A stretch of DNA of 64,000 nt from an uncultured Candidatus Saccharibacteria bacterium (GCA_965230915.1 OZ246395.1:858431-922430); one strand, 5' to 3'; shown: positions 1 through 61,984, numbered from the stretch's first letter. Notes: generated from the letters alone by a model not told the origin. Made by a program: numbers and translations.

Positions 1-3000
1 AGCAGGATCTGTAATACCAGTTATAGTTCTGGTTGCTTCTGCCCATACATCTGCTGCGGTTAATGTCGACCGACTTGAAACTGCAGCATCCAAGTTATCA
101 CAAACCCTCTTTCCGACAGACCCAGAGGTGTTTAATATCGAACATGCAGAATCCCAAATAGCAGATCTTGAAGCAGAGGTGAGTGCTACTTCACCAGTAA
201 TTGTCCTTGTTCCATATTCCCATACCTGCTGAGCTGTAATATCGTTTAATCCGTCGATATCTGCTTGTGTAGCAAGACTCCCGCTATCTAGATCAGCTGT
301 TGTTAGTGATCTTAATGCATAACTCCAGATATCAGCAGCTGAAGCGCCACCTCCGCCCCCGGTAGAAGACGATGTCGCGGCAAGAATAGCAAATCTGTTA
401 CCATTTGCAGGGGAAAAAGGCAGAGCAGGATCCAAAGTAATTGTTTTACTGGCTCCAGCATAATCAGAAATTCTTCTTACCACTCCCGTATTCTGACCCT
501 CGGTAAAAATTATTACCCCATCATTATAAAAATTGTCGGTAGCCGAAGTTAAATTTGTATTAAATGAAGTTGTTGTAGCAGATGGATCAGATACATTTGC
601 GTAATTTGCAACAAGCGAATCCTGTAATAACTGTCCGAAAGAGCCATCTGTATCGGCAAAATTCGAATATTGTGCAGCCCATACTCCTTCAGCTGTTAGA
701 CCTGTAGATAACCAAGGAGACACAGGCTGACCATCTGCATAAAAGTCGAGCGTTCCAGTATCAACTGACCCCGATAAAATAGATACATCATCTATATAAA
801 CATATGGCGGTTCATATATTACATAATCACCAACAGTGGTCGCTGCAAATGTAGTGCTTCTTAAAAATGGAACAACCGTACCTTTTAAATATAGGATTTG
901 GGATGTATTTCTTACAATATCAAATATTTTTCCATTAGAATCTTTTAATTTATAACCAACCCATTGATTCGGCGTCCAAGATTTATCAACATCTTCGAAC
1001 ATGGGGGGTAGATAGTTTCCGATAGGAAGAGCAATAACTTCGTTTGTTCCAGAGTCGCTGGCAACAAAATTATTTTTAACAGAAATTACTAACTCCGCTA
1101 AAGCCGATTCGGTCGGTGTTCCTGATACAACAAACTGCTGCCATGTACCGGGGTCGTCGCTGGCGGTCCATGTTAAATTATCACCTGTCATCCCAAGTCC
1201 TGATAGTGTAACTGTTGGCAAATTAGAAGAACCATACGCATCATTTACGTAAATATATCCTGTAACAGCGAGTGGCTTTGTTGCAACTCCAACGACTTTA
1301 GCAGTGTAATCCAAAGTAACATCAGCGCTTGTAGGTTCCATTCTCCAGCTATAACCGCCACTCGTTCTTACAGTTGTATCAGATAAGGATTGCCCCGTGG
1401 TTCGCATGTTTCCGAATGTTGTAAAGTTAACAATGTCTTTAGTATTAGTAGAATAAGTACCTCTAATATCAGTCCCGGGGATTGTTGTTCCAAAATAGTG
1501 CTCAGGTATGCGTGACATATTTGTATATCCAGCAGTACCAAATAGCACAGGGCTTAAAAACTGAGTACCAGAACCAGTAAATTGTGCCAACGATTCTGCC
1601 TCAAATGTTGCAGTATTCGGAGATGTATTTATATCTGATTCGTTCCATAATCCGCGACCAAACACGCTGCCGTCATCAGTAATTGCAATCGAAGATGCAG
1701 TCTGAGCAAAACGTATTCCGGACCCATATTCTGAACCGACTGTAACAACATCAGACGATGTGTGCCCGTCAAATACGTTATCTGACATATTAAAGAAAGA
1801 ATTCCCATACAATCTAATACCATAGTTATTTATAGAAAATATATTGTTCGATATAGTTACTTTCGCAACTCCAGAACTAAAGTTTAATGCCCCGCTCGTA
1901 CCGGAACCGGCAACCCCGTTATTGTAAAATTCGCTATTCGAAACAGTATATAGACGACCCGAAAAGAACGCAGCAGCACCATTAGCTGCAGCAGGAGGGA
2001 CTGTAACATAGGCATTACGATTTCCCATAAAAATACTTCCGTCGATTCCAACATTTTGCGATGTACTTGCATTGTATCCGCTACCTATATTCGCAGCGGC
2101 AAAGTTTGTAGTAACAAAGTATGCCCCGACATAATTAGTTCCTTCTGTTTTGCCTGAAACTGTATATGCGCGATCATAAAAGTTATAAAAGACGGAGTTA
2201 GAAACTCGTTGCGTTGGTTTTACAGCCGCTGAAGTATACGGATTTCCGACAATTGAGAAATTGCTGTATTGATTCTCCATAGACACATCCGAAAAATCTA
2301 GCGTGGCTAAACCTGAGAGGCCAACAGCTACAGGCCCAAAACCAAGCCCGGCATTAATAGGTGCACCGGTTGTCGCCCCTGTATAAGAGATATTTTCAGT
2401 CGACCATATATGTGTATTTCTCTTTAAATTCAGGACAGGCGAATAGGTCGGATTATCCTCCGACTCTCTTTTCGCTTTATGATGATATGTGAAATTATTT
2501 GACCAACCTGTAAGTGTGGCGAGCGCAGCATTTTCTAAAAATCCCGACCCAGATTTTATTCTTGCCGATGGAGTATATTTATCACCGGTATTATCGACCC
2601 ATACACGCGTTCTTTGAGGGTATGTAATTACACGAATCCGTTCGTTTCCGGTGTCAGCGCCATTTGTAAAAATTATTGAAGGATTACCAAAAGCATAGTC
2701 GGCCCATACCCATCCCTCGCGAGGGTTCATTGCAGAATCAAAACTCGCCCTAAATATATTTGTCCCCGCAACACCTGAACCCGAGCAAGTGACAGTCTCT
2801 CCGCCTGTCCATGCACTGGATGGTGGAGTAAACGAACCGTAATTACAGCCGGCAGAAGTATCGATATCATCATCAAATATTGCAAATTCATCGATGCTTC
2901 CATCAAACGCGGCATCATATGTATACCTGTTTCCGATAATAACTAACCCTGCATTAGCTCCTCTTGTTCCAACGGTCGAAGCTTGCCCAGTTGTAAATGG

Positions 3001-6000
3001 AGTTCCATCAAGCCATGCACGTTTAGCATTGGCAGTTTCATCCCATGCTAATCTGAAGTGATACCATTGTCCCGCAGTTGGAGAAAAGCTCTGCCTTAAT
3101 AGTGTCCCTTGAGCTGCTGCTGCATAGATCGCAGCCTCTAAATAACCGTCGGGAGTATGTCTTATAAAAAGTCTGTTCGTATCTCCAAGGTTGGCATAGT
3201 CTACAAGGTACGCACCTTTGGGGTTAGAAGGAGAACCTGAATAATTCGCTTTAAACCAGAAATCAATTGTTCCGTTTTGACGTGCACTGGCGGTTCCGCT
3301 CTGACCTTCAATATTATATCTAGTAGCGATACTGCTACTTGTAATTGCATATGTAGGATAAACCAAAACAGCGCTGCCAATACCATTTACACCAGTCCAG
3401 GATCCGTTATTTCTTAAGTAATTATCCTGGAGCAAAAGCATTCTATCCCCGAACTTAGTTGCGGTTGGAGACCCCGATGGAATCCTTAAGCTTATCTCAT
3501 CATCAGGGGAAGTATATGTAGTACCGGGGGTTGCAGTCCCTGAAGATCCGGTTGCACTGCCTGTAACTGTATATTTACTTTGCGTCGGATCCCATTCAAA
3601 ATCCCAAAGTTCATATTTTGTGTCTCCGTTAGAGGTCGTAATTCCCACAGCACTATCTAGTCCCTTATAGCTTCTAATTCCGGTGGAACTTAAATATATT
3701 TTGTCGCCAATTTCCGGAGGAGTTACCCCGTTTCTCCCACCTTTATGCTTAAGGGTGAAGTTGATATAGCTGCTTGTAAAAGGTGTGCCTGGGGTAGCGG
3801 TGCCAATCGAACCTTGAGTTGAACCTACAACATTCCAAGTTCCCGTATCTGTGAATGTGTCCGAAAAGCCTGTGTCTGTTGAAACTGTGTCGAATAAGGC
3901 TTTCATTCCTTGGGACGCAGTTGCAGAACCTGTATAAAGTCCGAATCGGCCTGCGGTATATGTTGCATTTGTTTCAGTTTCATCCCACGAACCCGGCTCA
4001 CCTGAAGAACAATCTGAAGTCGCCCAGAACTTTGCATTAAGAGTTGTTCCACTAACTTGAGCCTTCAAACAGTACCAGGTGTCTTCACTAAAAGCTTTTG
4101 TGGTCGCTGAACCAATTAAAGTCGGAACACCAGCCAAAGTCGTATACCAGCCGATTGTATTAGCCGCATTCGTTTTTGTTATTAAGGCGGCATAACCATT
4201 TCCGTCAAGGTTCTGCCTCATCATTACTCCAACACGTCTAGATGTTGCATCCGCAACCATATCCATTTTTACGAGCGCACTTATTGTGTAATCGGTGCCA
4301 GTTAGCGAACCATTATGCAAAACAAGGTGCTGAACGTTGGTTGCATTAACATTTAATGTTCCACTATCAATATGCCAAATATATGGAGCTGAAGGTAAAG
4401 CCTGAGCACTTGTATATTTTTGGGTTTCTATCCAGCCAGGAGAGTTTCCATATTCAAGAGTCCAAGTTTCATTTGGATCATAAGAAGCTCCCGGAGTGAC
4501 CTCAGATAGTTTTGCCTCTTGTACGCCTGATGAAACAGCAATAGCCCCCGATGATAATCTTTCTATACCGCTCATTCCTATAGGTGTTGTTTGATTAGCC
4601 GGAGAAGTAGTCCACGATGAAAAACTGGAAATTCTTGCTCTGACCCAATACGCATTAACACTGTTAATCGTGGTTTTTGCCGGAGTGCCTGTTAAGTTAG
4701 AAGGCGTCCAGCTAAGTATTTTTCTACCGGTATTCGAACTAAAAACCGATGTGGGATCAACAGAAACCCAATGTCCGCCATTTAATCTTGAGACTCTGGC
4801 GTTCTGAGCCGTTGTATATCCCGATGGAAGCGGCTCCGCAAAAGTCAAAACAGTCGCAGTTGGAGCTGTTGTTCCAAGTCTTCTATATATAGGACTCGAA
4901 TCATCATCGTCAATCATTACGATTTGGTCTAAACCGAAGTTTGCTCCACCTTCAGGGATTGTTATTGTGTAAGAGTTTCTGGTTATATCAGCAGACAACG
5001 GCATCGAGTAATCGGTTCTAGGCTGATATATATACGAATCTCTAGGTGTAAAACTAATCCAGTTAGAACCATTCCAGAATTCCCATACATAACTTGCAGA
5101 TGCAGACATTAATGTTCCAATATTAAATTCCAGCGAATAGAACATACTGTTGCCTTGATCTGCAAAGTACACTGCATCATTTACTTCAGAATTTGCGCTA
5201 TCACCAAAAATCGTCCATGCAGTACTATTCGCATAGTTAGAAGAATAGCTTACAGATCCACCGTTATAGTTGGCATTGTAAATATTTGTTAGAGGAACCG
5301 TACCGATTTCGGAAACCTCCATATTTGGAGCCGGTAAATCATTTTTACCTCCAGCGGTCACACCTCCGGTCCAGAGTGGCATTTGGGCAGCATCATCAAC
5401 GCTTCCCATTTCTAAAGTAGAAATATTATTATCTGGTGGCAGGTTTGTTCCACCGCCGACTGCAATTTCATCTGTGGGCTGCCAGTTTCCAACGACATTG
5501 TCTTCCACATCAACCCAAGTATTGCCTGCATCTGTAAGGTTGTTCCCCAAATAACCGGTATCAATGTTGCCATCGATATCAACGGCCAAATCGCTCTTGC
5601 TTGTTCTAAAATCGCTCGACCCATCTGCATACAAACTAACTCTTCCGGTACGAAAGTTTGTCTGCGTAGAAGCAGCGATAATACCCGTCATTGTAAAAAC
5701 CCCGGCTCTACGATCTGACCCTGTTGGAAGTTCGGTAGTTATGCCTTTTGCGATATAAGCGCCTTGCGCTGTTGTATAACCGGTAACGGCAGCGGCAGTT
5801 AAAGTGATTGATGTCCCGCTTTGAATAGCGGCAATCACACGGGTTATTGCGACAGAATTATTATCATCAAGAATTATAGTATCTCCAACCGCAAACCCTG
5901 TTGTTGATGTAACAGTAAGTGTCGTGGAAGCGGCAGAATCTACAGTAAGAGTAGTCGAAGCTGCCGGGCTTACATTATCAAAATGTATATCCGAATAAGA

Positions 6001-8484
6001 AGAAGCTGGCAAAGCCGCCCCCGGTTTACCGAATGCGACAGAAGCATTAGACTCTACGACAATTTTGCCCGGGATATTTATTCGATAATGTTTGTTGGCT
6101 GAATTATCTATTCCTAGCTGCGAACCGGGGGTAACTAACGCCGAAACCCATCCGCCGTTAGATGTATATGCCGCAAAGTCGGTTCGGCTACCCGCACCAT
6201 CGCCGACCGCACCTGATACATTGCCAGTATATATAAGACCTGCGTCCCAATTACGGTCAATCGTAACAACGTGGCTCTCTTTAGTCGCCCAATTTATATC
6301 ATTTGATAAATTCGAAGAATCATTAGTATCCGGATCGGATTTTCCATTACCAACAATAACCATATCTCCATCTGCGGGCGCAGTAGTATTGGCATCTCCA
6401 TATGCTACAAAGTAAATATGTCTATTAGATAAAAATGGATATCTCGTTGAAGAAGTTGCAACTGCCTCTGATTTGGCATAAGCAAGAACAACACTCGTAG
6501 TACGAGCCAACAAAGTTGAACCTGTAGGGTTTTGAGCGTGATTTATAGAGGTCCACTTTAAAACATTTCCGTTTGAAGGTGTCCCGGTATTAGAAAGGGT
6601 AACCGAAACTTCAGCTATTTTTGCCGATTGATCGGTAGTGTAAGTTCCGTTTCCAGGACTGCTGTTTAATGTTATTGGTTGACCGACACCACAAGAGCCG
6701 GAAAAACTTGAAATCGTTCTAGTTATTATTGGGGAGTTATTATCATAAATGGCTACAGTTCCGCCTGTTGCAAACTTTGTATTGTCCTCGACGCAAATTA
6801 CAGCCGTAGCATCTGTGTTTGCCTGAACAGTCTGATGTGCACCCTGAATTATTCTTTGCTTCCAAATTGATCTAGCCACGCTGGCATTTTTAGAAGTTGT
6901 ATAACCGGTAACCATTGCAGAAGTTGTAACAATGGCAGGGCCGTCCGAACAGCTCGCATGTGATGAAGTCACAGATGCAATAGTTCTTTGTATTGTAGCT
7001 GTATCTGAATCCCAAATATCAATATATTGATTAGCCGCAAAACCGGTAGTAGAAGCTACACAAATTACCGTTGTTGCGGTTGAATTAGCAGTAAGAGTAG
7101 TTAAAGTTGCCCCATCATCAACCCAAGAAGCACCTGTCGCACCGTCAGTAGCGGTTGTCAGTTTTCTTGCTTGAGTTCCTGATACCGAGCCTACAATGGT
7201 CCAATCGCTTGTGGCCGATGAATAGGTCGCGGTCCAGTGCTCATTTTCAGTCCTTCTTGCTGTAGGCAATCCAACTCCCGCGGAAGAATTAGCGACGACC
7301 ATTCCACCTAATAAAGATGCTGAACCGCCAAGCACACTATTTGAAGTCAACGCAGGCGGCATATTCATAGTAGAGGCACTTGTAGCATCAATATCAATTA
7401 CGCCGAGTGTTCTAACAGTTCCATTTACCGAAGCAAAACCATTAGACTGAGGCGATTCGCCCCATACTCCAAGAGCAGTCGTCGCCGGAGCAGTCGCTCC
7501 CATATTTATAATGCGTATTCCATAATGCTTAGTCGTCGAAACGCCCGGATCAACAGCCAAAGGCGGATCAAATCTAAAATCTAGAGTTGCTCTACCAAAA
7601 TTACCCGGCTGGGAATTTTCGCCAGATGTAGCCTGATTAAATTGCCATACAGTTCTTCTTTCGACAACAGTATCCGAAGGGTAAGTATAAGCACCCTGTG
7701 TGCCTGTTACATAATTCGAACACGATGAAGTACAGCTCGCGGATGGAAACCTTAGAAGCTCAACCACAATATCGCTGTTTGAAAGCGAAGTCGATGTAAT
7801 GTTTTCCATGATTATCTGAACACCGGCTATATTGCCGTCATCTGAAGGCGTAAAACCAATAAATTGTGCCGCCGCATAAGTTGCTGTCGCCGCCATAGGA
7901 ACGTATCCGACTGCCAAGCCTCCGGCAGAACCATCGGTCGTACCACCCGGGTGAATTGGGTTAAAGGTTCCCGATTCGGCATCACCGTTAACACCATCGC
8001 CCGAATATGCCATCGCTGTATACCAGTCACCATCAGTAGATAGGGTCGTACTTTGCTTTGATATTTTAACCGCACCTGTAAACGTCGCCGCAAAAGGCTT
8101 TGGCGCAAATAATTTTGACGATACAAATATAAAAATTGCAACAAAAGCTGGAGCTAAAAATACAATCGCCAAGACAAGAGGTAAATGCCTTCGGACATAC
8201 AAAACAATCTTTGCCGGAGTTAGATTTTTTATATCTCTATAAAAATTTTTAATGAGTTTTTTGTAATCGGTAGTTCTGAAAGTTCTGTATAAATTTTTAG
8301 AAAATATAATTATTTCCTTCTTCGAAAACCTGACATTCTTGATTTTTTTAATAAGGAAAATGATTGATGGAATTATTCCCGAAGTCTTTTCTTTTATAGT
8401 TTTAGGTAAGTTCGCTAATAAGGTCTGCCACACAACCATCTTTCGACGGTAAACTGACTTTCGCCTGGGCAGATTAGTTCGCAT
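1..8484 (-). CDS. Giant cell-surface protein, partial (start at 8484, continues past window start; >2820 codons in window). N-terminal TM anchor, parallel beta-helix-like repeats, LamG/concanavalin-like motif, repeated ~65-aa T/S-rich modules
   Basis: Manual translation of the minus strand from ATG (rc of cat at 8482-8484) stays open to position 1 with protein-like composition. The ORF track shows no >=60-aa ORF in this frame and only short ORFs in the other frames, as expected if one frame runs off the edge. TM helix LVLAIVFLAPAFVAIFIFV near the N-terminus; ISNNIFSINNYGIRLYGNSFFNMSDNVF is a PbH1-like beta-helix repeat; GSIDEFAIFDDDID is a LamG-like motif. Confidence 0.85.
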   Translation of the reverse strand, partial: MRTNLPRRKSVYRRKMVVWQTLLANLPKTIKEKTSGIIPSIIFLIKKIKNVRFSKKEIIIFSKNLYRTFRTTDYKKLIKNFYRDIKNLTPAKIVLYVRRHLPLVLAIVFLAPAFVAIFIFVSSKLFAPKPFAATFTGAVKISKQSTTLSTDGDWYTAMAYSGDGVNGDAESGTFNPIHPGGTTDGSAGGLAVGYVPMAATATYAAAQFIGFTPSDDGNIAGVQIIMENITSTSLSNSDIVVELLRFPSASCTSSCSNYVTGTQGAYTYPSDTVVERRTVWQFNQATSGENSQPGNFGRATLDFRFDPPLAVDPGVSTTKHYGIRIINMGATAPATTALGVWGESPQSNGFASVNGTVRTLGVIDIDATSASTMNMPPALTSNSVLGGSASLLGGMVVANSSAGVGLPTARRTENEHWTATYSSATSDWTIVGSVSGTQARKLTTATDGATGASWVDDGATLTTLTANSTATTVICVASTTGFAANQYIDIWDSDTATIQRTIASVTSSHASCSDGPAIVTTSAMVTGYTTSKNASVARSIWKQRIIQGAHQTVQANTDATAVICVEDNTKFATGGTVAIYDNNSPIITRTISSFSGSCGVGQPITLNSSPGNGTYTTDQSAKIAEVSVTLSNTGTPSNGNVLKWTSINHAQNPTGSTLLARTTSVVLAYAKSEAVATSSTRYPFLSNRHIYFVAYGDANTTAPADGDMVIVGNGKSDPDTNDSSNLSNDINWATKESHVVTIDRNWDAGLIYTGNVSGAVGDGAGSRTDFAAYTSNGGWVSALVTPGSQLGIDNSANKHYRINIPGKIVVESNASVAFGKPGAALPASSYSDIHFDNVSPAASTTLTVDSAASTTLTVTSTTGFAVGDTIILDDNNSVAITRVIAAIQSGTSITLTAAAVTGYTTAQGAYIAKGITTELPTGSDRRAGVFTMTGIIAASTQTNFRTGRVSLYADGSSDFRTSKSDLAVDIDGNIDTGYLGNNLTDAGNTWVDVEDNVVGNWQPTDEIAVGGGTNLPPDNNISTLEMGSVDDAAQMPLWTGGVTAGGKNDLPAPNMEVSEIGTVPLTNIYNANYNGGSVSYSSNYANSTAWTIFGDSANSEVNDAVYFADQGNSMFYSLEFNIGTLMSASASYVWEFWNGSNWISFTPRDSYIYQPRTDYSMPLSADITRNSYTITIPEGGANFGLDQIVMIDDDDSSPIYRRLGTTAPTATVLTFAEPLPSGYTTAQNARVSRLNGGHWVSVDPTSVFSSNTGRKILSWTPSNLTGTPAKTTINSVNAYWVRARISSFSSWTTSPANQTTPIGMSGIERLSSGAIAVSSGVQEAKLSEVTPGASYDPNETWTLEYGNSPGWIETQKYTSAQALPSAPYIWHIDSGTLNVNATNVQHLVLHNGSLTGTDYTISALVKMDMVADATSRRVGVMMRQNLDGNGYAALITKTNAANTIGWYTTLAGVPTLIGSATTKAFSEDTWYCLKAQVSGTTLNAKFWATSDCSSGEPGSWDETETNATYTAGRFGLYTGSATASQGMKALFDTVSTDTGFSDTFTDTGTWNVVGSTQGSIGTATPGTPFTSSYINFTLKHKGGRNGVTPPEIGDKIYLSSTGIRSYKGLDSAVGITTSNGDTKYELWDFEWDPTQSKYTVTGSATGSSGTATPGTTYTSPDDEISLRIPSGSPTATKFGDRMLLLQDNYLRNNGSWTGVNGIGSAVLVYPTYAITSSSIATRYNIEGQSGTASARQNGTIDFWFKANYSGSPSNPKGAYLVDYANLGDTNRLFIRHTPDGYLEAAIYAAAAQGTLLRQSFSPTAGQWYHFRLAWDETANAKRAWLDGTPFTTGQASTVGTRGANAGLVIIGNRYTYDAAFDGSIDEFAIFDDDIDTSAGCNYGSFTPPSSAWTGGETVTCSGSGVAGTNIFRASFDSAMNPREGWVWADYAFGNPSIIFTNGADTGNERIRVITYPQRTRVWVDNTGDKYTPSARIKSGSGFLENAALATLTGWSNNFTYHHKAKRESEDNPTYSPVLNLKRNTHIWSTENISYTGATTGAPINAGLGFGPVAVGLSGLATLDFSDVSMENQYSNFSIVGNPYTSAAVKPTQRVSNSVFYNFYDRAYTVSGKTEGTNYVGAYFVTTNFAAANIGSGYNASTSQNVGIDGSIFMGNRNAYVTVPPAAANGAAAFFSGRLYTVSNSEFYNNGVAGSGTSGALNFSSGVAKVTISNNIFSINNYGIRLYGNSFFNMSDNVFDGHTSSDVVTVGSEYGSGIRFAQTASSIAITDDGSVFGRGLWNESDINTSPNTATFEAESLAQFTGSGTQFLSPVLFGTAGYTNMSRIPEHYFGTTIPGTDIRGTYSTNTKDIVNFTTFGNMRTTGQSLSDTTVRTSGGYSWRMEPTSADVTLDYTAKVVGVATKPLAVTGYIYVNDAYGSSNLPTVTLSGLGMTGDNLTWTASDDPGTWQQFVVSGTPTESALAELVISVKNNFVASDSGTNEVIALPIGNYLPPMFEDVDKSWTPNQWVGYKLKDSNGKIFDIVRNTSQILYLKGTVVPFLRSTTFAATTVGDYVIYEPPYVYIDDVSILSGSVDTGTLDFYADGQPVSPWLSTGLTAEGVWAAQYSNFADTDGSFGQLLQDSLVANYANVSDPSATTTSFNTNLTSATDNFYNDGVIIFTEGQNTGVVRRISDYAGASKTITLDPALPFSPANGNRFAILAATSSSTGGGGGASAADIWSYALRSLTTADLDSGSLATQADIDGLNDITAQQVWEYGTRTITGEVALTSASRSAIWDSACSILNTSGSVGKRVCDNLDAAVSSRSTLTAADVWAEATRTITGITDPA

Positions 8485-8525
8485 ATTTTTTGTTGTATTG
8501 CAGGCTTCTTTCTATATTTAACACA

Positions 8526-16100: not shown

Positions 16101-16787
16101 ATTTACACAACAAAAGATGAAGATTTAGAAACCGGGGATATAGTTTCAATTGACCCTGACTTATCGACAGGTGTAATGAAAAGCTCCAAACCTTACGATA
16201 AAAGTGTTATTGGAATAGTCTCCACAAGTCCCGGAGTCGTAATCGGTTCAGTACAAAAAGAAGGCGTCAAAGCCATGCCTATTGCTTTAAGTGGACGCGT
16301 ACCGACCAAAGTGTCGACAGAAAACGGATCAATATACCCAGGAGACTACCTTACAACTTCATCTATTCCCGGTGTCGCTATGAAATCTACGAAAGCTGGT
16401 CCGATTATTGGAACCGCAATAAATTCATTCGATGACGATAAAGTTGGAAAAATTTTAGTCTTTGTTAAAAATGGATCTTCAAATATAGATTCGGGCGAGA
16501 ATGAATTTGTTAATTCCTTCGGAAAAACCACAGTTAAATCAGGTGAGTCCGAAGCTCAGATTGATTTCTCTGACGAATACAAAAAACAATTAGCAGATAC
16601 AAAAGTAAGTCCATTCATAAATATAAGCCCGAGTCTGAATGATGAAGATGAAATTGAGGACTTACCTCAATATGCCGTATTCGACATCTCTAAAGAAGGT
16701 TTTAAAATAAAAATTTCTAAGACAACAGGGTTTGATATTGATTTTTCGTGGGTCGCTGTTTCACCAAATTCCAAAAACCATGAGTGA
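13122..16787 (+). CDS. 1221-aa membrane-anchored protein: N-terminal MerR-type HTH, single TM, large S/T/N/G-rich extracellular region with a tandem ~135-aa repeat and a conserved C-terminal domain
   Basis: AEQTAKLLGITTDKLSILERQGILHPLKTANGNIQY matches the MerR HTH pattern. TM segment SLYVAGSFIAVYILLVIIFIISF. Internal tandem duplication ~14170-14990. Upstream palindrome GTTACataacaGTAAC at 13091-13106. Confidence 0.8.
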   Translation: MDYFSAEQTAKLLGITTDKLSILERQGILHPLKTANGNIQYPKSDIVQIKSHNRHSISEEAELMGSVIQKDLVKSTSLMKKSLYVAGSFIAVYILLVIIFIISFSSNPIQTAKWLGIIRNSEATSTLALNSNGGNVLGASTIENEKDSVVQTILQPVGKVSLKLVKNIKPDAYAEVSEVTILDPNDVLKLNTDGNMVPEKPIDIADSSLLKVRESDLVENLNSQYVQGRQPGTNPGDLAIVGDNSQEVAAPIIVQDNTLAEKISELTNDNFSGNAAISNSNLANSSITINTSGPISGGDTIALGGAIDIDCPTCITDDSDFVTEGSTNTFINKSINATDNTITGLNSINLEAGDYSSKITSGTYSINITGTVDTAINFSGQLLGDVTGTQTATSVEKIKGQSLGNVLPTSGNILIGNGSEWNSELLSGDATIDASGVITLKNTGTAGIFGSSNSIPIITTDAQGRVLSASTTLITGLGPSSLSSGDYSSVINSGIYNIDISGNASTATSATSANTATTANSATNFTGNLLGDVTGTQSSTIVEKINGENLGIVTPTSGNLLIGSGTEWVTKSLSGDATVNSSGLVSLVNTGTAGTYGSSSEIPVIITDSKGRVTGVANTSIANLSVSNFISQNISQWTNDSSFITNSSINNLTNKTISGITNTLSDISNSSLSNSSITFAGNVGSGNISLGSTINILGGGINSTSYSSGTLTITGTEADTLSSVTGRGSSTNNTLTLNGGINTTTTTNLNLDTGTTGSILIGTGFNSKNIGVGNTFGSTSLNLFSGTGNINLVAGPTSSSEKVQIGNSASATPDILVLDNGTADPSGINGAMYYNTATNKFRCYQNGWTNCISNVGADIQNAVSYDTSQDLTNIGSAQVTVTSVTVTPTTATGDVYVRAKAEILSSNGTDQTLVLSIEDNATCTGSTLTSNPITITSASGTVIGDFELSAVEVDAGTSPQSYSLCASTATGDTDIRLYQMFATVIDTGSDLAEIYTTKDEDLETGDIVSIDPDLSTGVMKSSKPYDKSVIGIVSTSPGVVIGSVQKEGVKAMPIALSGRVPTKVSTENGSIYPGDYLTTSSIPGVAMKSTKAGPIIGTAINSFDDDKVGKILVFVKNGSSNIDSGENEFVNSFGKTTVKSGESEAQIDFSDEYKKQLADTKVSPFINISPSLNDEDEIEDLPQYAVFDISKEGFKIKISKTTGFDIDFSWVAVSPNSKNHE
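14170..14990 (+). repeat. In-frame tandem duplication (~135 aa x2) inside the 1221-aa gene
   Basis: SGDYSSKITSGTYSINITG...GDVTGTQTATSVEKIKGQSLGNV...TGTAGIFGSSNSIPIITTDAQGRV repeats as SGDYSSVINSGIYNIDISG...GDVTGTQSSTIVEKINGENLGIV...TGTAGTYGSSSEIPVIITDSKGRV. Confidence 0.8.
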
Positions 16788-17865
16788 GAATAATTTTTAT
16801 GATGATGGCCCGGACTTCGGCCCAGATTCACTTGTAAATGAAATAAATTCTTTGGCACATAAATATTATCCCGCCGAAAACCCAAGCGAAATTCCTGAAA
16901 ATAACTTCACTCATCTGACTAGAAATATATACATTCAAGCCGGAGTTCCAGTCTTGGCTTTAACTTACTTAATGTTATTTAGCAATTCGCAAAACACGAG
17001 TGCTCAAAGCACTGTTGAAATTCATGTGGAACCCTCAACAATTGCGAATGCTGCGTGCTATCCGGATGAACTAGAATTCCAAATTACAAATGTAAATGAA
17101 GATAATGCTCCCGGAACAATTTGGGTCAGCTGGAACGACGAAACTTTACAAATTGAAATCTTTGCAGTAGATCAAAACGGTACTGCAATATATCACGTTA
17201 CTGATCCCGACTTGCTCGATGGAATATTGGAAGACTCATGGACAGAAATATTTGCACAATGGATAGGACAATTTGTAGTCAAAGGGTGTGCCACTCCAAC
17301 ACCAACATTCACTGCAACCTCAACGGAAACTCCAACACAAACCTATACAGCTACGGCAACTGAAACATCTACCGAGATGGCTACTTCGACTTCCACGTCT
17401 ACATCTACAGCAACGGCTACTTCGACCTCGACCCCAACTTTTACTGAGACACCTAACCCAACAGCGACAGCAACAGATACGTCAACAGCGACCCAAACTC
17501 CTAGCCCAAGTACAACATCAACTCCCAGCACAACCTCAACGCCAATTCCAAGCTCGACTTCTACATCAACGGAGACTCCAACTGTAACTTCTACAAATAC
17601 ACCAAATGCTACGACAACAGAAACTCCAACTCAAACCTTTACCAGTACTCCATCACCGACACAAACACGCACCAATACCCCTACTAATACTCCTGTTGAA
17701 TTGGTAGAAACTAACACTCCTACTTTTACGCCAGATCCATCGCCTACAGCCCCAACCCATACTGGCTCCCCCACACCAACAGATATAACGCCAAAACCTA
17801 CGGCGACAATAGAACCGACAGCTACGAAACCTAAAATATATGCCCCTGAAATCGAAAAAAACTAG
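16780..17865 (+). CDS. Secreted/surface protein with a long Thr/Pro/Ser-rich mucin-like C-terminal linker (start placed at the ATG overlapping the upstream stop in ATGAGTGA)
   Basis: Hydrophobic N-terminal segment VPVLALTYLMLF; ~170-aa TPT/TST low-complexity tract (17290-17800). The track start at 16732 overlaps the upstream gene, and the internal ATG at 16780 gives a 4-8-nt overlap typical of coupled genes. Confidence 0.65.
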   Translation: MSENNFYDDGPDFGPDSLVNEINSLAHKYYPAENPSEIPENNFTHLTRNIYIQAGVPVLALTYLMLFSNSQNTSAQSTVEIHVEPSTIANAACYPDELEFQITNVNEDNAPGTIWVSWNDETLQIEIFAVDQNGTAIYHVTDPDLLDGILEDSWTEIFAQWIGQFVVKGCATPTPTFTATSTETPTQTYTATATETSTEMATSTSTSTSTATATSTSTPTFTETPNPTATATDTSTATQTPSPSTTSTPSTTSTPIPSSTSTSTETPTVTSTNTPNATTTETPTQTFTSTPSPTQTRTNTPTNTPVELVETNTPTFTPDPSPTAPTHTGSPTPTDITPKPTATIEPTATKPKIYAPEIEKN

Positions 17866-17942
17866 TTGAGGGAGAAAAGGTAGTTAATAACGCTTGATAA
17901 AGGATACTGGTTAAAGTGGTTAATCTGTGAAAATTATATGTC

Positions 17943-17982
17943 TCCGCGGGCTGGACGTTATCAGAACTGAGGTTTTAGAATT
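17943..17982. repeat. att-like direct repeat, copy 1: the 14-nt 3' end of tRNA-Asn (TCCGCGGGCTGGAC) plus 26 nt identical to copy 2. Left boundary of the tRNA-Asn island
   Basis: 40/40 identity with 18645-18684. The first 14-15 nt equal the 3' acceptor/T-arm end of the tRNA at 19228-19302. Confidence 0.85.
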
Positions 17983-17984: not shown

Positions 17985-18046
17985 TTGAAGTTGTTTCGAC
18001 TTGACCTTCCCAAATCTCATCAGACACTAAGTGTAACAACTTGCAA
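17985..18046 (-). ncRNA. Type III hammerhead ribozyme (HHR-1), immediately 3' of gene 18131..18532
   Basis: Minus-sense 5'-UUGCAAGUUGUU^ACAC-UUA-GUGU-CUGAUGA-GAUUUG-GGAAGGU-CAAGUC-GAAA-CAACUUCAA. Conserved CUGAUGA and GAAA cores. Stem I is 4 bp with a triloop, stem II 6 bp with loop GGAAGGU, stem III 7 bp including A15.1:U16.1. Cleavage triplet GUU. Two paralogs covary. Confidence 0.85.
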
Positions 18047-18130
18047 GAATAAAGTATGACTGAGATTTCGGTATTTGAAACCGATTGAAGTGTAGCGCTA
18101 GGCTAAACTCTATTAATCTCAAGCAATACT

Positions 18131-18532
18131 CTACCCTTGCCTCTTGTGTGCTACTTTAAACTTGACCATACCGGCGCTCGTCATGAGCATCCATGATCCT
18201 GGGATAAACTGCACCCAGCCGTCGATCTCAATCTCATCGCCACCATTCCCTCGGTAAACCGAAGCTATTATGTTCAGGACTTTATCCCTGAACTCATCAG
18301 CAACAGTTTCCACAACCTCGCCAGGATTCGTCTGAATCTCGACATACAAATGTGCCGCATCTGGATCCACACTCAAAATCTCTAATCCAAACGCATTCAC
18401 GATTATATCGTCACTTGGCAAGCCATAATCCGTACCCGCCATAACCTTTACTTCACGGCGAATTTTATCTGTGGAATCAATCAAAAATGTCTTAACTCCA
18501 AGATCCATAGCTAACAGTTTAATCAGTGGCAT
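18131..18532 (-). CDS. Hypothetical 133-aa protein, GC-richer cassette gene P1
   Basis: Own promoter (TTTAAA-17-TATAAT) and SD AAGGAG 9 nt before the ATG; followed by HHR-1. No recognisable domain. Confidence 0.7.
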   Translation of the reverse strand: MPLIKLLAMDLGVKTFLIDSTDKIRREVKVMAGTDYGLPSDDIIVNAFGLEILSVDPDAAHLYVEIQTNPGEVVETVADEFRDKVLNIIASVYRGNGGDEIEIDGWVQFIPGSWMLMTSAGMVKFKVAHKRQG

Positions 18533-18585: not shown

Positions 18586-18623
18586 ATTGTGCATGATTAT
18601 ACTATAAATACAGGTCGATTTAA
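18586..18623 (-). promoter_or_regulatory. Sigma70-type promoter of cassette P1 (TTTAAA-17-TATAAT) with upstream CCCATAGTATTT motif
   Basis: rc of 18586-18591 is TATAAT, rc of 18609-18614 is TTTAAA, spacer 17. Motif CCCCATAGTATTT directly upstream, next to the att repeat. Confidence 0.6.
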
Positions 18624-18644
18624 ATACTATGGGGCATAAATGGG

Positions 18645-18684
18645 TCCGCGGGCTGGACGTTATCAGAACTGAGGTTTTAGAATT
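18645..18684. repeat. att-like direct repeat, copy 2 (identical 40 nt), separating cassettes P1 and P2
   Basis: TCCGCGGGCTGGACGTTATCAGAACTGAGGTTTTAGAATT is identical to 17943-17982, 703 bp away. Confidence 0.85.
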
Positions 18685-18694: not shown

Positions 18695-18760
18695 AAATAA
18701 AAAAACCGCCTCATGATTTTGATTGTCGTAATGACTTTCGCGTCATAAAGCGGGTTAATC
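18695..18760 (-). terminator. Terminator-like structured region 3' of cassette gene P2 (nested hairpins, then UUUUUUUAUUU), where P1 has a hammerhead instead
   Basis: Minus-sense CCGCUUUAUGACGCGAAAGUCAUUACGAC...CAUGAGGCGGUUUUUUUAUUU; the inner AUGAC-GCGAAA-GUCAU hairpin sits inside a longer imperfect stem. Confidence 0.4.
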
Positions 18761-18785: not shown

Positions 18786-19139
18786 TTACTTGAGGAGCTT
18801 TAGCTCAGATAGAGGGGGATATGCTGATCCCCAAAAGAAATACTTATCCGAAAATCCAGAACCACTCAATAGTAAGTAGCTAACCGAGGCCATAGGTGTC
18901 GAAGTAAATCGATATTGGTTCCTATCAATTTCCGTCAAGCCAACTCGCCCGTTTCCCCAGACCATAACGCCTGCTAACAGCTGAGGTAAGTATGTTTTCC
19001 GATGTTCTCCTAAATAGGAGTACACTGGGAACATCATTTGGATCAACTCTTCATCCGAGTTGCTAAATACAGGAATCCGCCCCTCTGCTAGAGTCTTTGC
19101 CCAACCACTTACGATAGCATTTAAATCGTCGGTGATCAT
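18786..19139 (-). CDS. Hypothetical 117-aa protein, cassette gene P2, first gene after tRNA-Asn
   Basis: ORF directly downstream of a consensus promoter abutting the tRNA; visibly higher G+C than flanks; no recognisable domain. Confidence 0.65.
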   Translation of the reverse strand: MITDDLNAIVSGWAKTLAEGRIPVFSNSDEELIQMMFPVYSYLGEHRKTYLPQLLAGVMVWGNGRVGLTEIDRNQYRFTSTPMASVSYLLLSGSGFSDKYFFWGSAYPPLSELKLLK

Positions 19140-19227: not shown

Positions 19228-19302
19228 CGTGGCTCCGCGGGCTGGACTCGAACCAGCAACCTCGAAGTTAACAGCTTCTTGCTCCACCATTGAGCTACCG
19301 CG
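19228..19302 (-). tRNA. tRNA-Asn (anticodon GTT), CCA encoded
   Basis: rc gives TCCGCGG-TA-GCTC-AATGGTG-GAGC-A-AGAAG-CTGTTAA-CTTCG-AGGTT-GCTGG-TTCGAGT-CCAGC-CCGCGGA-G-CCA, a cloverleaf with 7-bp acceptor stem, U33 and anticodon GUU. Confidence 0.9.
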
Positions 19303-19319
19303 GAATATTGGTGCTGCAG

Positions 19320-31881: not shown

Positions 31882-31894
31882 TGGTGCACCCAAG
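31882..31894. repeat. att-like direct repeat: 13-nt copy of the tRNA-Arg 3' end (TGGTGCACCCAAG); left boundary of the tRNA-Arg island
   Basis: Identical to 34142-34154 (the 3' end of the tRNA at 34142-34218). Confidence 0.7.
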
Positions 31895-31944
31895 TGATGT
31901 TAATTGGAATCGGGTTTTTGAATTTATATTGAAATTTTAGGAAA

Positions 31945-31998
31945 GTAGTTTCGACTTGATCTTCCCAAGTCTCATCAGGGACTATGTCCGACTAGAAC
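31945..31998 (-). ncRNA. Type III hammerhead ribozyme (HHR-2), 3' of gene 32105..32845
   Basis: Minus-sense 5'-GUUCUAGUC^GGAC-AUA-GUCC-CUGAUGA-GACUUG-GGAAGAU-CAAGUC-GAAA-CUACU. Canonical GUC cleavage triplet. Stem I and II covary with HHR-1 and HHR-3. Confidence 0.85.
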
Positions 31999-32104
31999 AC
32001 CGGAAAGAGAGGTTGAAGAAAAAATTGCAACGATTACTCGCGCAGCTTCAACATCTTCCGATGTTCGGTTGATCTACAAAATTCAAAATGAAATTCGCCG
32101 AAAA

Positions 32105-32845
32105 CTAGGCAGACTTCTCAATCCTCTTGAGTGCCAAAGCCTTCTGGCCAAATGGATTGACTTCCAACTGCTCATTATACTTGGGCAAGGCGTTTATTAG
32201 AGGCAAATGCTGATCCTCCATATATCCAAGCCCTATAAAACGATCCGCCAAAGCCTCATCGCGAAGATACATTCCCCGAGAATGAATCGCCTGCCTAAAC
32301 AGGGCAATATCATCATGACTGAGAGCTTCAACATCTGAATTCTCGAGGAGAAATCCCCACTTTTTAGCGAAACCTTGAAGGCCTTTTGCATCCATAGACG
32401 AAATCGCCTGATGTGAGTATTTAACTCTTAGGCCGGCCACGAAATCAGCGAATGGCATGTACCAAAACTCTTCAGTTCGTAAACGAACTTCTTCTGGTTC
32501 CCATTCATAACCTGTGGCAAAAATACCTAGAGCCACAACTCGATCATTCAGTTCTTCAGTCCACCCGCGGTGGCGGATAGTTTCGCGAAGATAAGGCGTG
32601 TCCTCGATCCCCGAAATATCTTCCTCCGTCACATCAAAGAGCCAACCCTGCAGGTACTGCAATAGGCTGACCTCCGTTGTTCCGAACATCATTAATCCGG
32701 TCAGCCCACCATTGGCAGAGTGCGCCTTGTTCGTTGGCCGAGCAGGTATACTGGGAACTGCTTCCTGTGCGACTTGCTCTTCGACCTTTGAAAAAGGAAA
32801 CAAATTAACAACAAACGATACGAAGGTGTTGATAATGTTTTGCAT
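32105..32845 (-). CDS. Hypothetical 246-aa protein, GC-rich cassette gene P3
   Basis: SD AGGAGA 10 nt before the ATG; followed by HHR-2. Confidence 0.7.
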   Translation of the reverse strand: MQNIINTFVSFVVNLFPFSKVEEQVAQEAVPSIPARPTNKAHSANGGLTGLMMFGTTEVSLLQYLQGWLFDVTEEDISGIEDTPYLRETIRHRGWTEELNDRVVALGIFATGYEWEPEEVRLRTEEFWYMPFADFVAGLRVKYSHQAISSMDAKGLQGFAKKWGFLLENSDVEALSHDDIALFRQAIHSRGMYLRDEALADRFIGLGYMEDQHLPLINALPKYNEQLEVNPFGQKALALKRIEKSA

Positions 32846-32881
32846 GGTAGAAGTTTCTCCTGCTTACTGAAAGTTTTTATA

Positions 32882-32925
32882 TTGCTCGAAGTAACTTTCG
32901 ATTACTCAAAAACTAATTCGAGCAA
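32882..32925. repeat. Inverted repeat TTGCTCGAA-(26 nt)-TTCGAGCAA between cassettes P4 and P3
   Basis: Perfect 9-bp arms read directly; lies between HHR-3 and the P3 start. Confidence 0.45.
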
Positions 32926-32953
32926 TATATTTGTAGATCAATTTTTAATGTAC

Positions 32954-33010
32954 AAAACTGTTTTCGATCTGAGCTTCCCAGATCTCATCAGGCGCTATGC
33001 GCGAACAGCG
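32954..33010 (-). ncRNA. Type III hammerhead ribozyme (HHR-3), ~270 nt 3' of gene 33281..33838
   Basis: Minus-sense 5'-CGCUGUUC^GCGC-AUA-GCGC-CUGAUGA-GAUCUG-GGAAGCU-CAGAUC-GAAA-ACAGUUUU. Stem I GCGC/GCGC and stem II GAUCUG/CAGAUC; both covary against the paralogs. Confidence 0.85.
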
Positions 33011-33280
33011 GGCAAAAGTGAAGCGGAAAGCAAAAGATTAGATAATGATCGAAATGATCATCAAATTCTCATGCTTTAAAAACATGCTTCACTGCCCGTC
33101 TGGCAAACTTTGAAACGAATCCAATGTAGAATTCCCTGAGCTAGTATTTGACACTTTAAGCTATTCCTAGGTAAGTATCTTTCGATCTTACACACTATCA
33201 ATAGCGCCGTACCTTGCGGTCTTGGCAGTCTTGAGCTTTTCATCGGGCTCGTGTTGGATTTACAAACTTCTTACTACCAC

Positions 33281-33838
33281 CTACTTGGGTTCGTATATCC
33301 ACTCGATGTGGTCGAATACGAATGGGCGCGGCGCTTCAACAGAGACGATGGCTTTTAGGCCAGCCTCTTCGATTTTCGCCTTTGGATTGGCGAAGGAGAT
33401 GATCTCCTGCAAAGCGCTTTCCCTCGTCCCATCACGGCCTTCCTGGTGATACCAGACAGGAATTTCCTTCGTCTGAGGACCACTCGGCATAGCCGAAGGA
33501 ACAGAAACCACGACACCCATCCGCGGAAGCGGAACTAGATCTCTCGCGAAATCAGCGGAGGTAAAACCTTCCCATGGAAGTCGTACTAAATCCTTCACAC
33601 CTTCCTGCCAAACCACTACTTTCAGTAGTGCCGATGCCAACGGCGCCGGTACATTCTGAAACAACAAAACTGCATCCTTCTCGACAGCCTTTTTTGCCAA
33701 ATCCAAAAGGACTGGCTTTGTCTCCTCGCCCGTTGCGGGGAAGGTGACATTGATGGTTTCGACAACCTCAACTTGGAGTGTGCCGAAGTCTGGGGCGTGC
33801 CGACCAATAACAATAGCGCGAATCGTTGCATTTTGCAT
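33281..33838 (-). CDS. Hypothetical 185-aa protein, GC-rich cassette gene P4
   Basis: RBS GAAAGGG; ~250-nt leader from a consensus promoter next to tRNA-Arg; followed by HHR-3. Confidence 0.7.
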   Translation of the reverse strand: MQNATIRAIVIGRHAPDFGTLQVEVVETINVTFPATGEETKPVLLDLAKKAVEKDAVLLFQNVPAPLASALLKVVVWQEGVKDLVRLPWEGFTSADFARDLVPLPRMGVVVSVPSAMPSGPQTKEIPVWYHQEGRDGTRESALQEIISFANPKAKIEEAGLKAIVSVEAPRPFVFDHIEWIYEPK

Positions 33839-34095
33839 GGTGCTTTCAACCCTTTCAAGATTGAAACTTACATCAGTTTCTAAGCTCCCATTGGAGTTAG
33901 CTTCAGATCACCTGAAGAAACAACCTACGTTTTTCCATCGTAAGCTGATTCCTCAGGCAATCTTCAATTAGTTTGCCAAATTTTTAATGTACTTTTTGAG
34001 ACTTTTTGTGGGGTATAGCCTTTAGGGCCTTGCCGTTAAAAAAGCTCAGAAATCAATGGACTTTTTGATATCCGAACCTTTCAACTTAATGGCTA

Positions 34096-34124
34096 CATTA
34101 TATTACGAAAAGGCTAGCCTGTCA
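34096..34124 (-). promoter_or_regulatory. Perfect consensus sigma70 promoter (TTGACA-17-TATAAT) immediately 3' of tRNA-Arg, reading into the island
   Basis: rc of 34119-34124 is TTGACA, rc of 34096-34101 is TATAAT; preceded by CCTATAGTA. Confidence 0.7.
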
Positions 34125-34141
34125 ATACTATAGGCTAGTGT

Positions 34142-34218
34142 GGTGCACCCAAGAGGATTCGAACCTCTGGCCTCAACTTCCGCAAAGTTGCGCTCTATCC
34201 AGCTGAGCTATGGGTGCT
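34142..34218 (-). tRNA. tRNA-Arg (anticodon GCG), CCA encoded
   Basis: rc gives GCACCCA-TA-GCTC-AGCTGGATA-GAGC-G-CAACT-TTGCGGA-AGTTG-AGGCC-AGAGG-TTCGAAT-CCTCT-TGGGTGC-A-CCA. Arg-type D and T arms; anticodon loop UUGCGGA. Confidence 0.85.
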
Positions 34219-60727: not shown

Positions 60728-61051
60728 ATGGCAAGAATCGTTTTGTATCAAACCATTAGAATAAGAGGCAAACGTATGTTACCAGTAGATCTATCCGTAG
60801 AAGATATAACCATACGGGTATTATCAGGACAAACAAAGTTGATCCATTTCGGACGCACCACGCACGAAGGCGAGGCAGCGATACTTTTAACTTTCTGCCC
60901 TGAGAGCAAATATGAGAAGAGCAGTTTTATTGTGCAAGGGACGAAAGTCTTCAACCTAAGCGGTAAAAAACCTGGGTTTGTAATGGGGTTTCTCACAAAA
61001 ACAGGTTCCCATGTAACAATAGAACCAGCAAAAGCTCCAAACATAAATTAG
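60728..61051 (+). CDS. Small hypothetical protein (107 aa), first gene of GC-richer islet; probably leaderless
   Basis: TATAAT at 60716-60721 lies only 6 nt before the ATG. The overlapping antisense ORF 60748..61044 cannot be excluded. Confidence 0.4.
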   Translation: MARIVLYQTIRIRGKRMLPVDLSVEDITIRVLSGQTKLIHFGRTTHEGEAAILLTFCPESKYEKSSFIVQGTKVFNLSGKKPGFVMGFLTKTGSHVTIEPAKAPNIN

Positions 61052-61223
61052 CCTTTGGCAATTGCCGCAGGCTAAGGTTTTATAACTCCGACGGGAACGT
61101 GGAAGCTAGAATGGCTCGCCATTCTACCCTGAAATCTTGCTTCCACAGTTTTACCCACTTTTACCTATAGTTATTGTATAATTTTGCCACGCTAAGATTC
61201 GCACACTGAAAGGAGCCTTTATA

Positions 61224-61529: not shown

Positions 61530-61618
61530 TGTATTGACCCGCTTAATATAATGTTGTATATTAACGCCAAGTTTTAGGCAGTTAATCGAGTTTTTAGGCT
61601 TAGAAAGGCGATTTAGCC

Positions 61619-61837: not shown

Positions 61838-61858
61838 AGTTTATCTCTGTACCAAAAG

Positions 61859-61896
61859 CCGGAGTGCTAATCTCAAAAAGATTCAGCACTCCGGCC
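61859..61896 (+). terminator. Long hairpin terminator after the 72-aa gene
   Basis: GCCGGAGTGCTAATC-tcaaaaa-GATTCAGCACTCCGGC, ~15-bp stem with one bulge, then CTAACTTTAAATTCTT. Confidence 0.55.
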
Positions 61897-61984
61897 TAAC
61901 TTTAAATTCTTCGAATTTATAATATAATACTGCAAGGTTATAGGTCTTATTGAGCGAAATGCATTTAGAAAGGGTAGGCTTACA

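Follow-up and report, generated by a model that had tools for sequence, protein, structure and literature searches.

Type III hammerhead ribozymes behind small cassette genes in a Saccharibacteria chromosome

The role of hammerhead ribozymes in bacteria has been open since 2010-2011, and a 2017 review, in which small non-conserved open reading frames (ORFs) are noted, still treats their function as an open question (PMC6155905). The same question is raised by a stretch of 64,000 nucleotides from an uncultured Candidatus Saccharibacteria bacterium (GCA_965230915.1 OZ246395.1:858431-922430; the whole stretch is called the window here, with positions counted from its first letter), where a hammerhead-shaped sequence, copy 1, lies at 17985-18046 on the minus strand behind a small cassette gene. 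The window is a bacterial chromosome of about 35% GC carrying rpoD, dnaG, metG, pgk and alaS, with richer islands (42-47% GC) at 17-20 kb and at 29-34 kb. As judged from its sequence, 17985-18046 is a genuine type III hammerhead, a ribozyme class already known. The best explanation of the locus as a whole, held here with a probability of roughly 0.7, is that such ribozymes form the 3′ ends of cassette mRNAs and insulate these from their neighbours. The locus gives three unusually clean natural comparisons: (i) a terminator versus a ribozyme in sister cassettes; (ii) a 253-bp presence/absence polymorphism; (iii) a one-promoter array with two ribozymes. Together they make 3′-end formation and cassette insulation a testable hypothesis. 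The ribozyme itself is ordinary; it is the cassette context that could help to settle the purpose of bacterial hammerheads.

The ribozyme and its relatives

Read as RNA, the minus strand at copy 1 is 5′-GCAAGUUGU-U^ACAC-UUA-GUGU-CUGAUGA-GAUUUG-GGAAGGU-CAAGUC-GAA-ACAACUU-3′. Direct reading gives the type III topology, with stems I and II capped and stem III open. The elements of copy 1 and the two other copies, all on the minus strand, are the following.

17985-18046: hammerhead copy 1 (type III), identified by sequence reading and by models R1 and R2
18042-18036 and 17994-17988: 5′ strand (AAGUUGU) and 3′ strand (ACAACUU) of stem III, open, 7 bp
18035 and 18034: U17 and A1.1, with the predicted cleavage site between them after GUU
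18034-18031 and 18027-18024: stem I, 4 bp, with the triloop UUA at 18030-18028
18023-18017: core CUGAUGA; the second core element is GAA at 17997-17995, or GAAA at 17997-17994
18016-18011 and 18003-17998: stem II, 6 bp, with the loop GGAAGGU
32953-33012: hammerhead copy 2, between ORF185 and ORF246; C17 at 33003, predicted cut 33003/33002
31940-31999: hammerhead copy 3; C17 at 31990, predicted cut 31990/31989; stem III of just 4 bp

The CUGAUGA directly 3′ of stem I corresponds to the hammerhead core C3-U4-G5-A6-N7-G8-A9, and the same arrangement is present in copies 2 and 3. A repeat finder grouped the three copies as one 59-nt family. Their catalytic cores are exact, position 17 holds a U in copy 1 and a C in the other two, and compensatory changes are found in all stems. 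An initial annotation of this DNA had proposed the type III parse, the CUGAUGA and GAAA cores and the stems of copy 1, all of which are borne out by the minus-strand reading and by 30 external relatives. Its GUU cut between 18035 and 18034 falls exactly between U17 and A1.1. The two covarying paralogs that it named are likewise real, lying on the minus strand at 32953-33012 and 31940-31999, and the covariation extends across 30 independent relatives.

The family was scanned for with the exact pattern CTGATGAG-N4-GGGAAG-N6-TCGAAA in IMG/VR, in GTDB contigs (one genome per species) and in metagenome contigs. Matches were found at 20 loci in the GTDB contigs and at 25 loci in the metagenome contigs. 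The 2.9 million contigs of IMG/VR gave none, which leaves the idea of a phage-borne element without support in that collection. Three GTDB matches (L006, L013 and L020) miss the stems and were set aside as chance. The full architecture is present in the remaining 17, of which 16 belong to metagenome-assembled genomes (MAGs) of Patescibacteria, among them Saccharibacteria and WWE3, and the last to a MAG with the label Pseudomonadales. In the collections searched, the family is essentially confined to the Patescibacteria (candidate phyla radiation), to which hammerheads are extended by a clade lying outside the Rfam models. Most relatives outside the window are single-copy.

All copies align without gaps across 60 columns. 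Covariation was assessed in 30 external, non-identical sequences and in a second alignment of 21 that includes the window copies. Pair cells are paired in 92-93% of cases, compared with 70-72% in shuffles (0/500 as high for the external set) and 31-41% with slid partners. In the external set, 13 of the 17 pairs change on both sides, and the outcome is the same with the window copies included. Stems I and II are both 100% paired; all four pairs covary in stem I, three in stem II and six of the seven in stem III. The A15.1-U16.1 pair (columns 9-51) is U-A in 30/30 and 21/21 sequences, and position 17 is only ever U or C, satisfying the rule of H and not G. The core is invariant in the 30 relatives save for one U7-to-C change, in an extra copy of L010; position 7 of the hammerhead tolerates any base. 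The 13 catalytic-core bases, H17 and the A15.1-U16.1 pair are kept in 33/33 copies. G-U wobbles are present and A-C pairs are absent from the external set, which fits folding of the sense strand. The loops of stems I and II have the invariant bases U-A and GGAAG, respectively, the two stems differ in length by 2 bp, and no loop-loop covariation was visible by eye.

Copy 1 scores 72.9 bits in model R1. Model R2 is a covariance model made from the 30 external sequences, without any window sequence and without the close relative L037; it gives 69.7 bits (E 2.9e-19) for copy 1, 70.6 for copy 2 and 64.1 for copy 3 (E about 1e-17 to 1e-19), and its next best match in the 64 kb reaches 14.3 bits. Because of this gap (64-71 versus 14 bits), the window has exactly three copies. 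A candidate fourth copy at 18259-18311 (minus strand, inside the cassette gene ORF133), with 14-15 bits and E about 0.1, has neither stem I nor GAAA and was judged a chance match. The bare pattern CUGAUGA-N10-40-GAAA occurs five times in the window against 1.5 expected, a mild enrichment that alone proves little; the full structure is decisive.

At Rfam gathering thresholds the window yields two tRNAs only, and with 18 loci of relatives added, tRNAs and one RAGATH-10. The model RF00008 (Hammerhead_3), with which the initial annotation had expected a hit to copy 1, gives no match to copies 1 and 2 at E<=10 and aligns end to end with copy 3 below threshold (28.3 bits against 48.5, E 0.0026). None of about 20 relatives in the 18 loci, nor the window copies (about 25 members in all), reaches any Rfam hammerhead threshold. 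Since the family-specific model is unambiguous, this reflects the limited reach of the Rfam model and is not a refutation. The Rfam seed does not cover this hammerhead clade, and its gathering threshold is a curation criterion, not a biochemical one; current annotation pipelines miss the hammerheads there for the same reason. Compared to RF00008 (clan CL00010), the family has the same core, three-helix junction and open stem III, at about 54-60 nt against a 54-position model. Its sequence has diverged; stem I is fixed at 4 bp with a NUA triloop, stem II has 6 bp with a near-invariant GGAAGNU loop, and the family occurs in Patescibacteria, not in viroids or plants.

Cassette arrays and proposed mRNA 3′ ends

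Copy 1 closes the second of two tandem units behind a tRNA gene. The features of this array, all on the minus strand, are given in order of transcription.

19230-19304: tRNA-Asn(GTT), anchor of the two-cassette array
18786-19139: ORF117, in unit A (cassette A, 589 bp)
18699-18753: terminator-like hairpin of unit A, after ORF117; 11-bp stem followed by U7, z -2.9
18637-18684: right-end repeat of unit A, also the left boundary of unit B (cassette B, 702 bp, with ORF133 and copy 1)
18596-18633: CCCATAGT motif and sigma-70-like promoter TTTAAA-17-TATAAT (promoter at 18624-18596), which would drive ORF133 and copy 1
18131-18532: ORF133, cassette gene with copy 1 in its 3′ untranslated region (UTR); an ORFan
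18036-18130: structured 3′ UTR of ORF133, which would end the mRNA after cleavage; minimum free energy (MFE) -21.7 kcal/mol, z -2.88, 0/200 shuffles as good
17935-17982: right-end repeat of unit B, made up of a 26-nt arm and a tRNA-Asn 3′-end copy (core 17942-17956), 94% identical to 18637-18684

The 3′ end of tRNA-Asn, GTCCAGCCCGCGGA, lies inside the tRNA at 19233-19247 and recurs at 18644-18658 and 17942-17956 (0.3 expected). Both non-tRNA copies are embedded in the 48-nt repeat, and two tandem units are so defined. The initial annotation had correctly put the gene 18131-18532 upstream of the ribozyme, with a stop some 90 nt away that in fact lies at 85 nt. Its "att-like" repeat about 30 nt on is real, with a label that is right and unspecific, the repeat holding a duplicated tRNA-Asn 3′ end; it spans 17935-17982 and begins 2 nt past the ribozyme, and it is the tRNA-derived core that is ~30 nt off.

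The second array, also on the minus strand, has one promoter and two ribozymes.

34141-34217: tRNA-Arg(GCG), anchor of the array
34097-34134: CCTATAGT motif and perfect TTGACA-17-TATAAT promoter (12/12), heading the array
33979-33992: junction GTACATTAAAAATT, 14 nt; end of the conserved leader and left boundary of the ORF185 unit
33281-33838: ORF185, cargo gene upstream of copy 2, with five homologues
32940-32953: second GTACATTAAAAATT, directly 3′ of copy 2
32105-32845: ORF246, an ORFan between copies 2 and 3
31882-31896: repeat of the tRNA-Arg 3′ end, CACTTGGGTGCACCA, 45 nt past copy 3; right boundary of the array

This array measures 2.26 kb, in the order CCTATAGT with promoter, leader, ORF185, copy 2, ORF246 and copy 3. 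The Asn core has three occurrences and the Arg core two, against 0.3-0.6 expected, and tRNA-end direct repeats bound the inserted DNA at both arrays.

The ribozymes and flanking ORFs are on the same strand, the ribozymes have near-consensus promoters upstream (12/12, 11/12 and 10/12 matches), the ORFs downstream of copies 2 and 3 are co-directional without a promoter of their own, and no intrinsic terminator was found after ORF133, ORF185 or ORF246 by a simple scan and by reading. Three observations speak for 3′-end formation. Firstly, the UTRs from stop codon to cut are strongly structured for copies 1, 2 and 3 (z -2.9, -4.2 and -3.9; 0/200 shuffles), and for copies 2 and 3 the UTR fold extends to 3-5 nt from the cut; with a structured UTR so near the cut, the last part of the cleaved mRNA would be a hairpin, followed by a short tail with the cyclic phosphate. 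Secondly, the 5′ side of the ribozyme is adjoined in seven relatives by a hairpin domain whose 9-bp stem covaries, with several double changes. Thirdly, a natural swap is present: unit A, with the same right-end repeat, has an 11-bp stem and U7 where unit B has the hammerhead. The simple terminator scan had missed the unit A hairpin because of its long loop, and no other ribozyme was detected in the unit A UTR.

According to the favoured explanation, copy 1 would be transcribed in the ORF133 3′ UTR from the sigma-70-like promoter, and the transcript would fold into three helices round the core and cut itself after U17 (18035/18034). The upstream product would be an ORF133 mRNA ending in a stable stem-loop domain and a short 2′,3′-cyclic phosphate tail; that this end and the hairpin stabilise the mRNA is assumed. 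The downstream product, with a 5′-OH at its start, would contain the body of the ribozyme, followed by the att repeat and by read-through antisense to the converging ORF 16732-17865. In this way a horizontally acquired unit would have the ribozyme as the terminator or insulator of its 3′ edge, and copies 2 and 3 would cut the single-promoter Arg array into single-gene mRNAs. The proposal of the initial annotation, a defined 3′ end that would uncouple the cassette transcript from downstream DNA, is most likely and the best-supported reading.

The hairpin domain noted above, of ~100 nt and abutting the hammerhead in L011 (1917-2016), L015, L018, L019, L023, L034 and L043, consists of a GGGG/CCCC pairing, the 9-bp stem and an inner GAGAU-ACCC-AUCUC hairpin. 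A different upstream domain (ACAGACC...GGTCTGTGCCAGAAAA...TTTTCTGG) is common to L004, L017, L008 and L014. A tRNA-like fold of the ribozyme together with the att repeat was rejected on inspection, there being no 5′ acceptor strand.

The cargo proteins have no Pfam, PHROG, NCBIfam or PADLOC match. Among 5.8e9 proteins the sole match of ORF133 is itself, on a contig of 945,287 bp, and ORF246 has no homologue among 5.8 billion. An exact-protein contig look-up gave none for ORF133, and for ORF185 only contigs identical to the window. Distant homologues of ORF185 (38% identity) are found in L046-L051, contigs of many short co-directional genes on which no hammerhead was found; L049 has a DUF551 and a weak GIY-YIG match and a phage-like look. 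A perfect 12-bp inverted repeat, TTGATCTACAAA, at 32930-32941 and 32069-32080 brackets ORF246, and a hairpin with 24-nt arms (32878-32929) lies in its 5′ UTR; these may pair the ends of a ribozyme-released mRNA or be element termini. The converging ORF 16732-17865 (plus strand) has 36-nt Thr/Pro-rich tandem-like repeats at 17293-17574 and no family match.

Units A and B each begin with CCYATAGT followed by a sigma-70-like promoter (11/12 and 10/12 consensus matches). The octamer CCYATAGT has 11 occurrences in the window against 2.1 expected, among them 34134, 30572, 29722, 19224 and 18633 (minus strand) and 61164 and 61523 (plus strand), and in several cases a near-consensus -35/-10 pair follows it directly where a GC-rich gene unit begins. 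The same CCTATAGTATTGACA is found upstream of hammerheads in L001 and L007; the octamer may mark the end of an element or act like a promoter UP element. The region 61000-63000 (plus strand; 41-44% GC), with small ORFs and two CCYATAGT-promoter motifs and without tRNA or hammerhead, may be a further unit array.

Cassette edges in relatives and alternative explanations

The relatives show how such units are arranged in other genomes. Locus L037 has the same promoter and leader as the window (74% identity), followed by a 30-aa hydrophobic ORF with a hammerhead, GTACATT and an ORF185 homologue (77% identity), so that the counterpart of the junction at 33979-33992 is occupied by an extra cassette. 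The hammerhead and junction of L037 are 93% identical to those of copy 2, which follows ORF185 rather than preceding it. L052 shares both flanking genes with L037 (80-87% identity) and is without the unit; the two metagenome contigs show a clean 253-bp presence/absence of the 30-aa ORF and hammerhead, flanked by a 7-bp direct repeat, GTACATT, and are otherwise collinear. In both, the ORF185 homologue sits behind the same leader. The same platform in L024 carries another small membrane ORF with a hammerhead.

Elsewhere, homology between relatives stops at the ribozyme 3′ end, as in L018/L043 and L004/L017 (the latter pair with a 1-kb insertion after the ribozyme), while in L005/L010 and L011a/L015 the common sequence is only ~100 nt upstream of the ribozyme, with no homology downstream. 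The platform itself, at 34125-33979 on the minus strand of the window, comprises the promoter and a ~110-nt leader ending in AAGTCTCAAAA-GTACATT, and is known from four genomic neighbourhoods including L037, L052 and L024. Its leader holds a covarying hairpin (ATCAA/TTGAT, ATCAC/GTGAT, ATATC/GATAT) absent from Rfam.

Several observations weigh against 3′-end formation by a hammerhead at a mobile cassette edge. For the ribozyme itself, Rfam hammerhead models stay below threshold for every copy, the isolated 62 nt of copy 1 has an MFE no better than shuffles (z -0.8), and the MFE structure of copy 3, with its 4-bp stem III, differs from the hammerhead fold; folding of isolated ribozymes is uninformative. 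For the cassette edge, L010/L011 differ by a 733-nt ORF-bearing insertion between promoter and ribozyme, with the boundary 5′ of the hammerhead and not 3′, and the ribozyme follows purCE in L005 and L034 and has ordinary housekeeping neighbours in many loci. For mobility, no integrase or phage protein was found around either array among the ORFs in and beside the units. An edge role is not universal, since the family also follows housekeeping genes, nor is tRNA anchoring general, no tRNA-end repeat having been seen after hammerheads in the other loci (8 kb each). Integrases are present near relatives in 3 of ~31 loci, all XerC/D-like, without enrichment. The family is therefore a general 3′-UTR or intergenic device; small gene units that are mobile or shuffled also bear it at their trailing edge.

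The unit boundaries also suggest a site that acts as DNA. The hammerhead-shaped sequence might be mainly a recombination site (a folded strand like attC, or part of an att site) served by a recombinase in trans, with RNA cleavage secondary or absent. The motif always adjoins a unit boundary (at distances of 6-8 nt to the GTACATT core and 30-45 nt to the tRNA-derived ones), yet unit A has the same right-end repeat without a hammerhead. The module travels with different cargo genes, and homology breakpoints coincide with its 3′ end; copies that follow housekeeping genes, however, show no sign of mobility. RNA-like motifs in consecutive intergenic regions have been raised as possible attC analogues (PMC5737381), but GTTRRRY/RYYYAAC boxes cannot be seen here, and neither IntI nor another integrase is found in the vicinity. 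A DNA site would have no need for the core bases, H17 and the A15.1-U16.1 pair kept in all 33 copies, and the wobble pattern fits the transcribed strand. This explanation is unlikely.

A main role of the ribozyme in the negative or conditional regulation of downstream sequence is also improbable, whether through decay triggered by the 5′-OH end, as with glmS and RNase J1, or through an upstream domain that switches the ribozyme. Destruction of the downstream RNA would silence the ORFs after copies 2 and 3, these being co-directional and without their own promoter, whereas behind copy 1 there is just read-through antisense to a converging gene, RNA whose destruction would benefit the cell. A switch between alternative folds is conceivable, as the UTRs of copies 2 and 3 adopt an MFE fold that sequesters part of the stem III 5′ strand and the GGGG/CCCC pairing of the relatives abuts stem III; no ligand-binding or known riboswitch motif was detected, however, and the exchange of terminator for ribozyme in unit A points to plain 3′-end formation.

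A third alternative concerns the paired copies 2 and 3, which bracket one gene at a distance of 1013 nt and might release a unit-length RNA that has 5′-OH and cyclic-phosphate ends and is circularised by RtcB or by the ribozyme as in retrozymes and viroids, to serve as a stable mRNA or a mobility intermediate. Circular or spliced products have been raised as possible for bacterial hammerhead pairs (PMC3088659), the 12-bp inverted repeat round ORF246 may draw the RNA ends close to each other, and L008 has two near-identical hammerheads with compatible stem III, 713 nt apart. In the window, by contrast, the strands of stem III in copy 2 (CUGUU/AACAG) and copy 3 (UAGU/ACUA) do not complement each other, and a chimeric, ligation-competent hammerhead cannot form for that reason. 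Copy 1 is solitary, most relatives are single copies, and no reverse transcriptase or RtcB was seen in the window, which makes circularisation very unlikely.

A chance CUGAUGA...GAAA match or a decayed, inactive relic is barely credible: the missing Rfam match at copy 1 and the unremarkable folding of the isolated sequence are outweighed by the R2 score of copy 1, by compensatory changes in all stems of three copies, and by an intact core with an allowed base at position 17, and chance as such is excluded by the external covariation and the R2 scores.

Comparison with known systems

Hundreds of bacterial hammerheads have been described, many of them near integrases or prophages and often with several flanking single genes of changing identity; the processing of long transcripts is their favoured, unproven role (PMC3088659). 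Typically, they flank single, non-conserved small genes (PMC3088659, PMC6155905). The statement of the initial annotation that a hammerhead is uncommon in a bacterial chromosome does not agree with these numbers (PMC3088659), and the host, for which the family's distribution and the contig size suggest a Patescibacteria genome of about 0.95 Mb, is probably not free-living either. A literature search brought up no paper that connects hammerheads with Saccharibacteria or Patescibacteria.

The window copies resemble the prophage-associated bacterial hammerheads (Perreault et al. 2011, PMC3088659; de la Pena review, PMC6155905) in being intergenic, co-directional with small non-conserved ORFs, clustered round single genes and linked to integrated DNA at tRNA genes. 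In contrast to those, the window arrays are without phage genes or a nearby integrase, the units measure 0.25-1 kb, and the family elsewhere also follows housekeeping genes. The locus fits the known picture of bacterial hammerheads and adds to it a Patescibacteria clade, the absence from IMG/VR, units bounded by tRNA ends or GTACATT, and the terminator/ribozyme swap.

The arrays share with integron cassettes and their attC sites the single-gene units behind one promoter, a structured module by the crossover core and the association of the same module with different cargo. They differ in that (i) IntI and an R/L box signature are lacking; (ii) the module is, by its sequence, a catalytically intact ribozyme on the sense strand; (iii) the units are anchored at tRNA 3′ ends or at a GTACATT core; (iv) some units have their own promoter. 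No Phage_integrase match was found among the ORFs flanking either array, and the ACAGTT(TT)GTACATT, CAACTTCAATAAATTC and ACTACTTTCC junctions do not fit GTTRRRY (by inspection only, no attC model being used). The layout is thus integron-like, and membership among the integrons fails for want of IntI and attC boxes. A tentative and rather doubtful extension is that the Patescibacteria have an undescribed integron-like system of hammerhead-terminated cassettes, in which the attachment site would lie 3′ of the hammerhead and small circular cassettes would enter a platform or a tRNA 3′ end by a recombinase in trans. If this were true, the ribozyme would be a built-in device, by which any cassette fits between the promoter and the resident gene without mRNA fusion.

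Integrative islands and satellites that target tRNA genes, e.g. of the tycheposon type, consist of units in tandem after a tRNA gene; a repeat of the tRNA 3′ end bounds each unit, and the GC content is foreign to the host. The window arrays are alike in all three respects and differ in that their units, of 589-2259 bp, have no recombinase or replication gene; no element-encoded integrase was found within or next to them. Retrozymes and viroid-like units are likewise unit-length RNAs bracketed by type III hammerheads, whereas the flanking ribozymes of the window are non-identical and incompatible in stem III, and no sign of circular RNA or reverse transcription was seen.

Two further observations were made outside the cassettes. 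In L023, a RAGATH-10 motif (RF03147, 43.9 bits) at 2512-2589 on the minus strand lies between tRNA-Glu and a gene with a hammerhead in its 3′ UTR, and it ties these neighbourhoods to those behind the discovery of twister-sister, pistol and hatchet (PMC11061315). In the window, no ORFs are listed in the first 5 kb because of a giant stop-free frame at 1-8511 (minus strand), which exceeds 2837 codons and runs off the window start; with its internal ~1.1-kb repeats (5771-5965 / 6896-7111), it probably encodes a giant surface protein.

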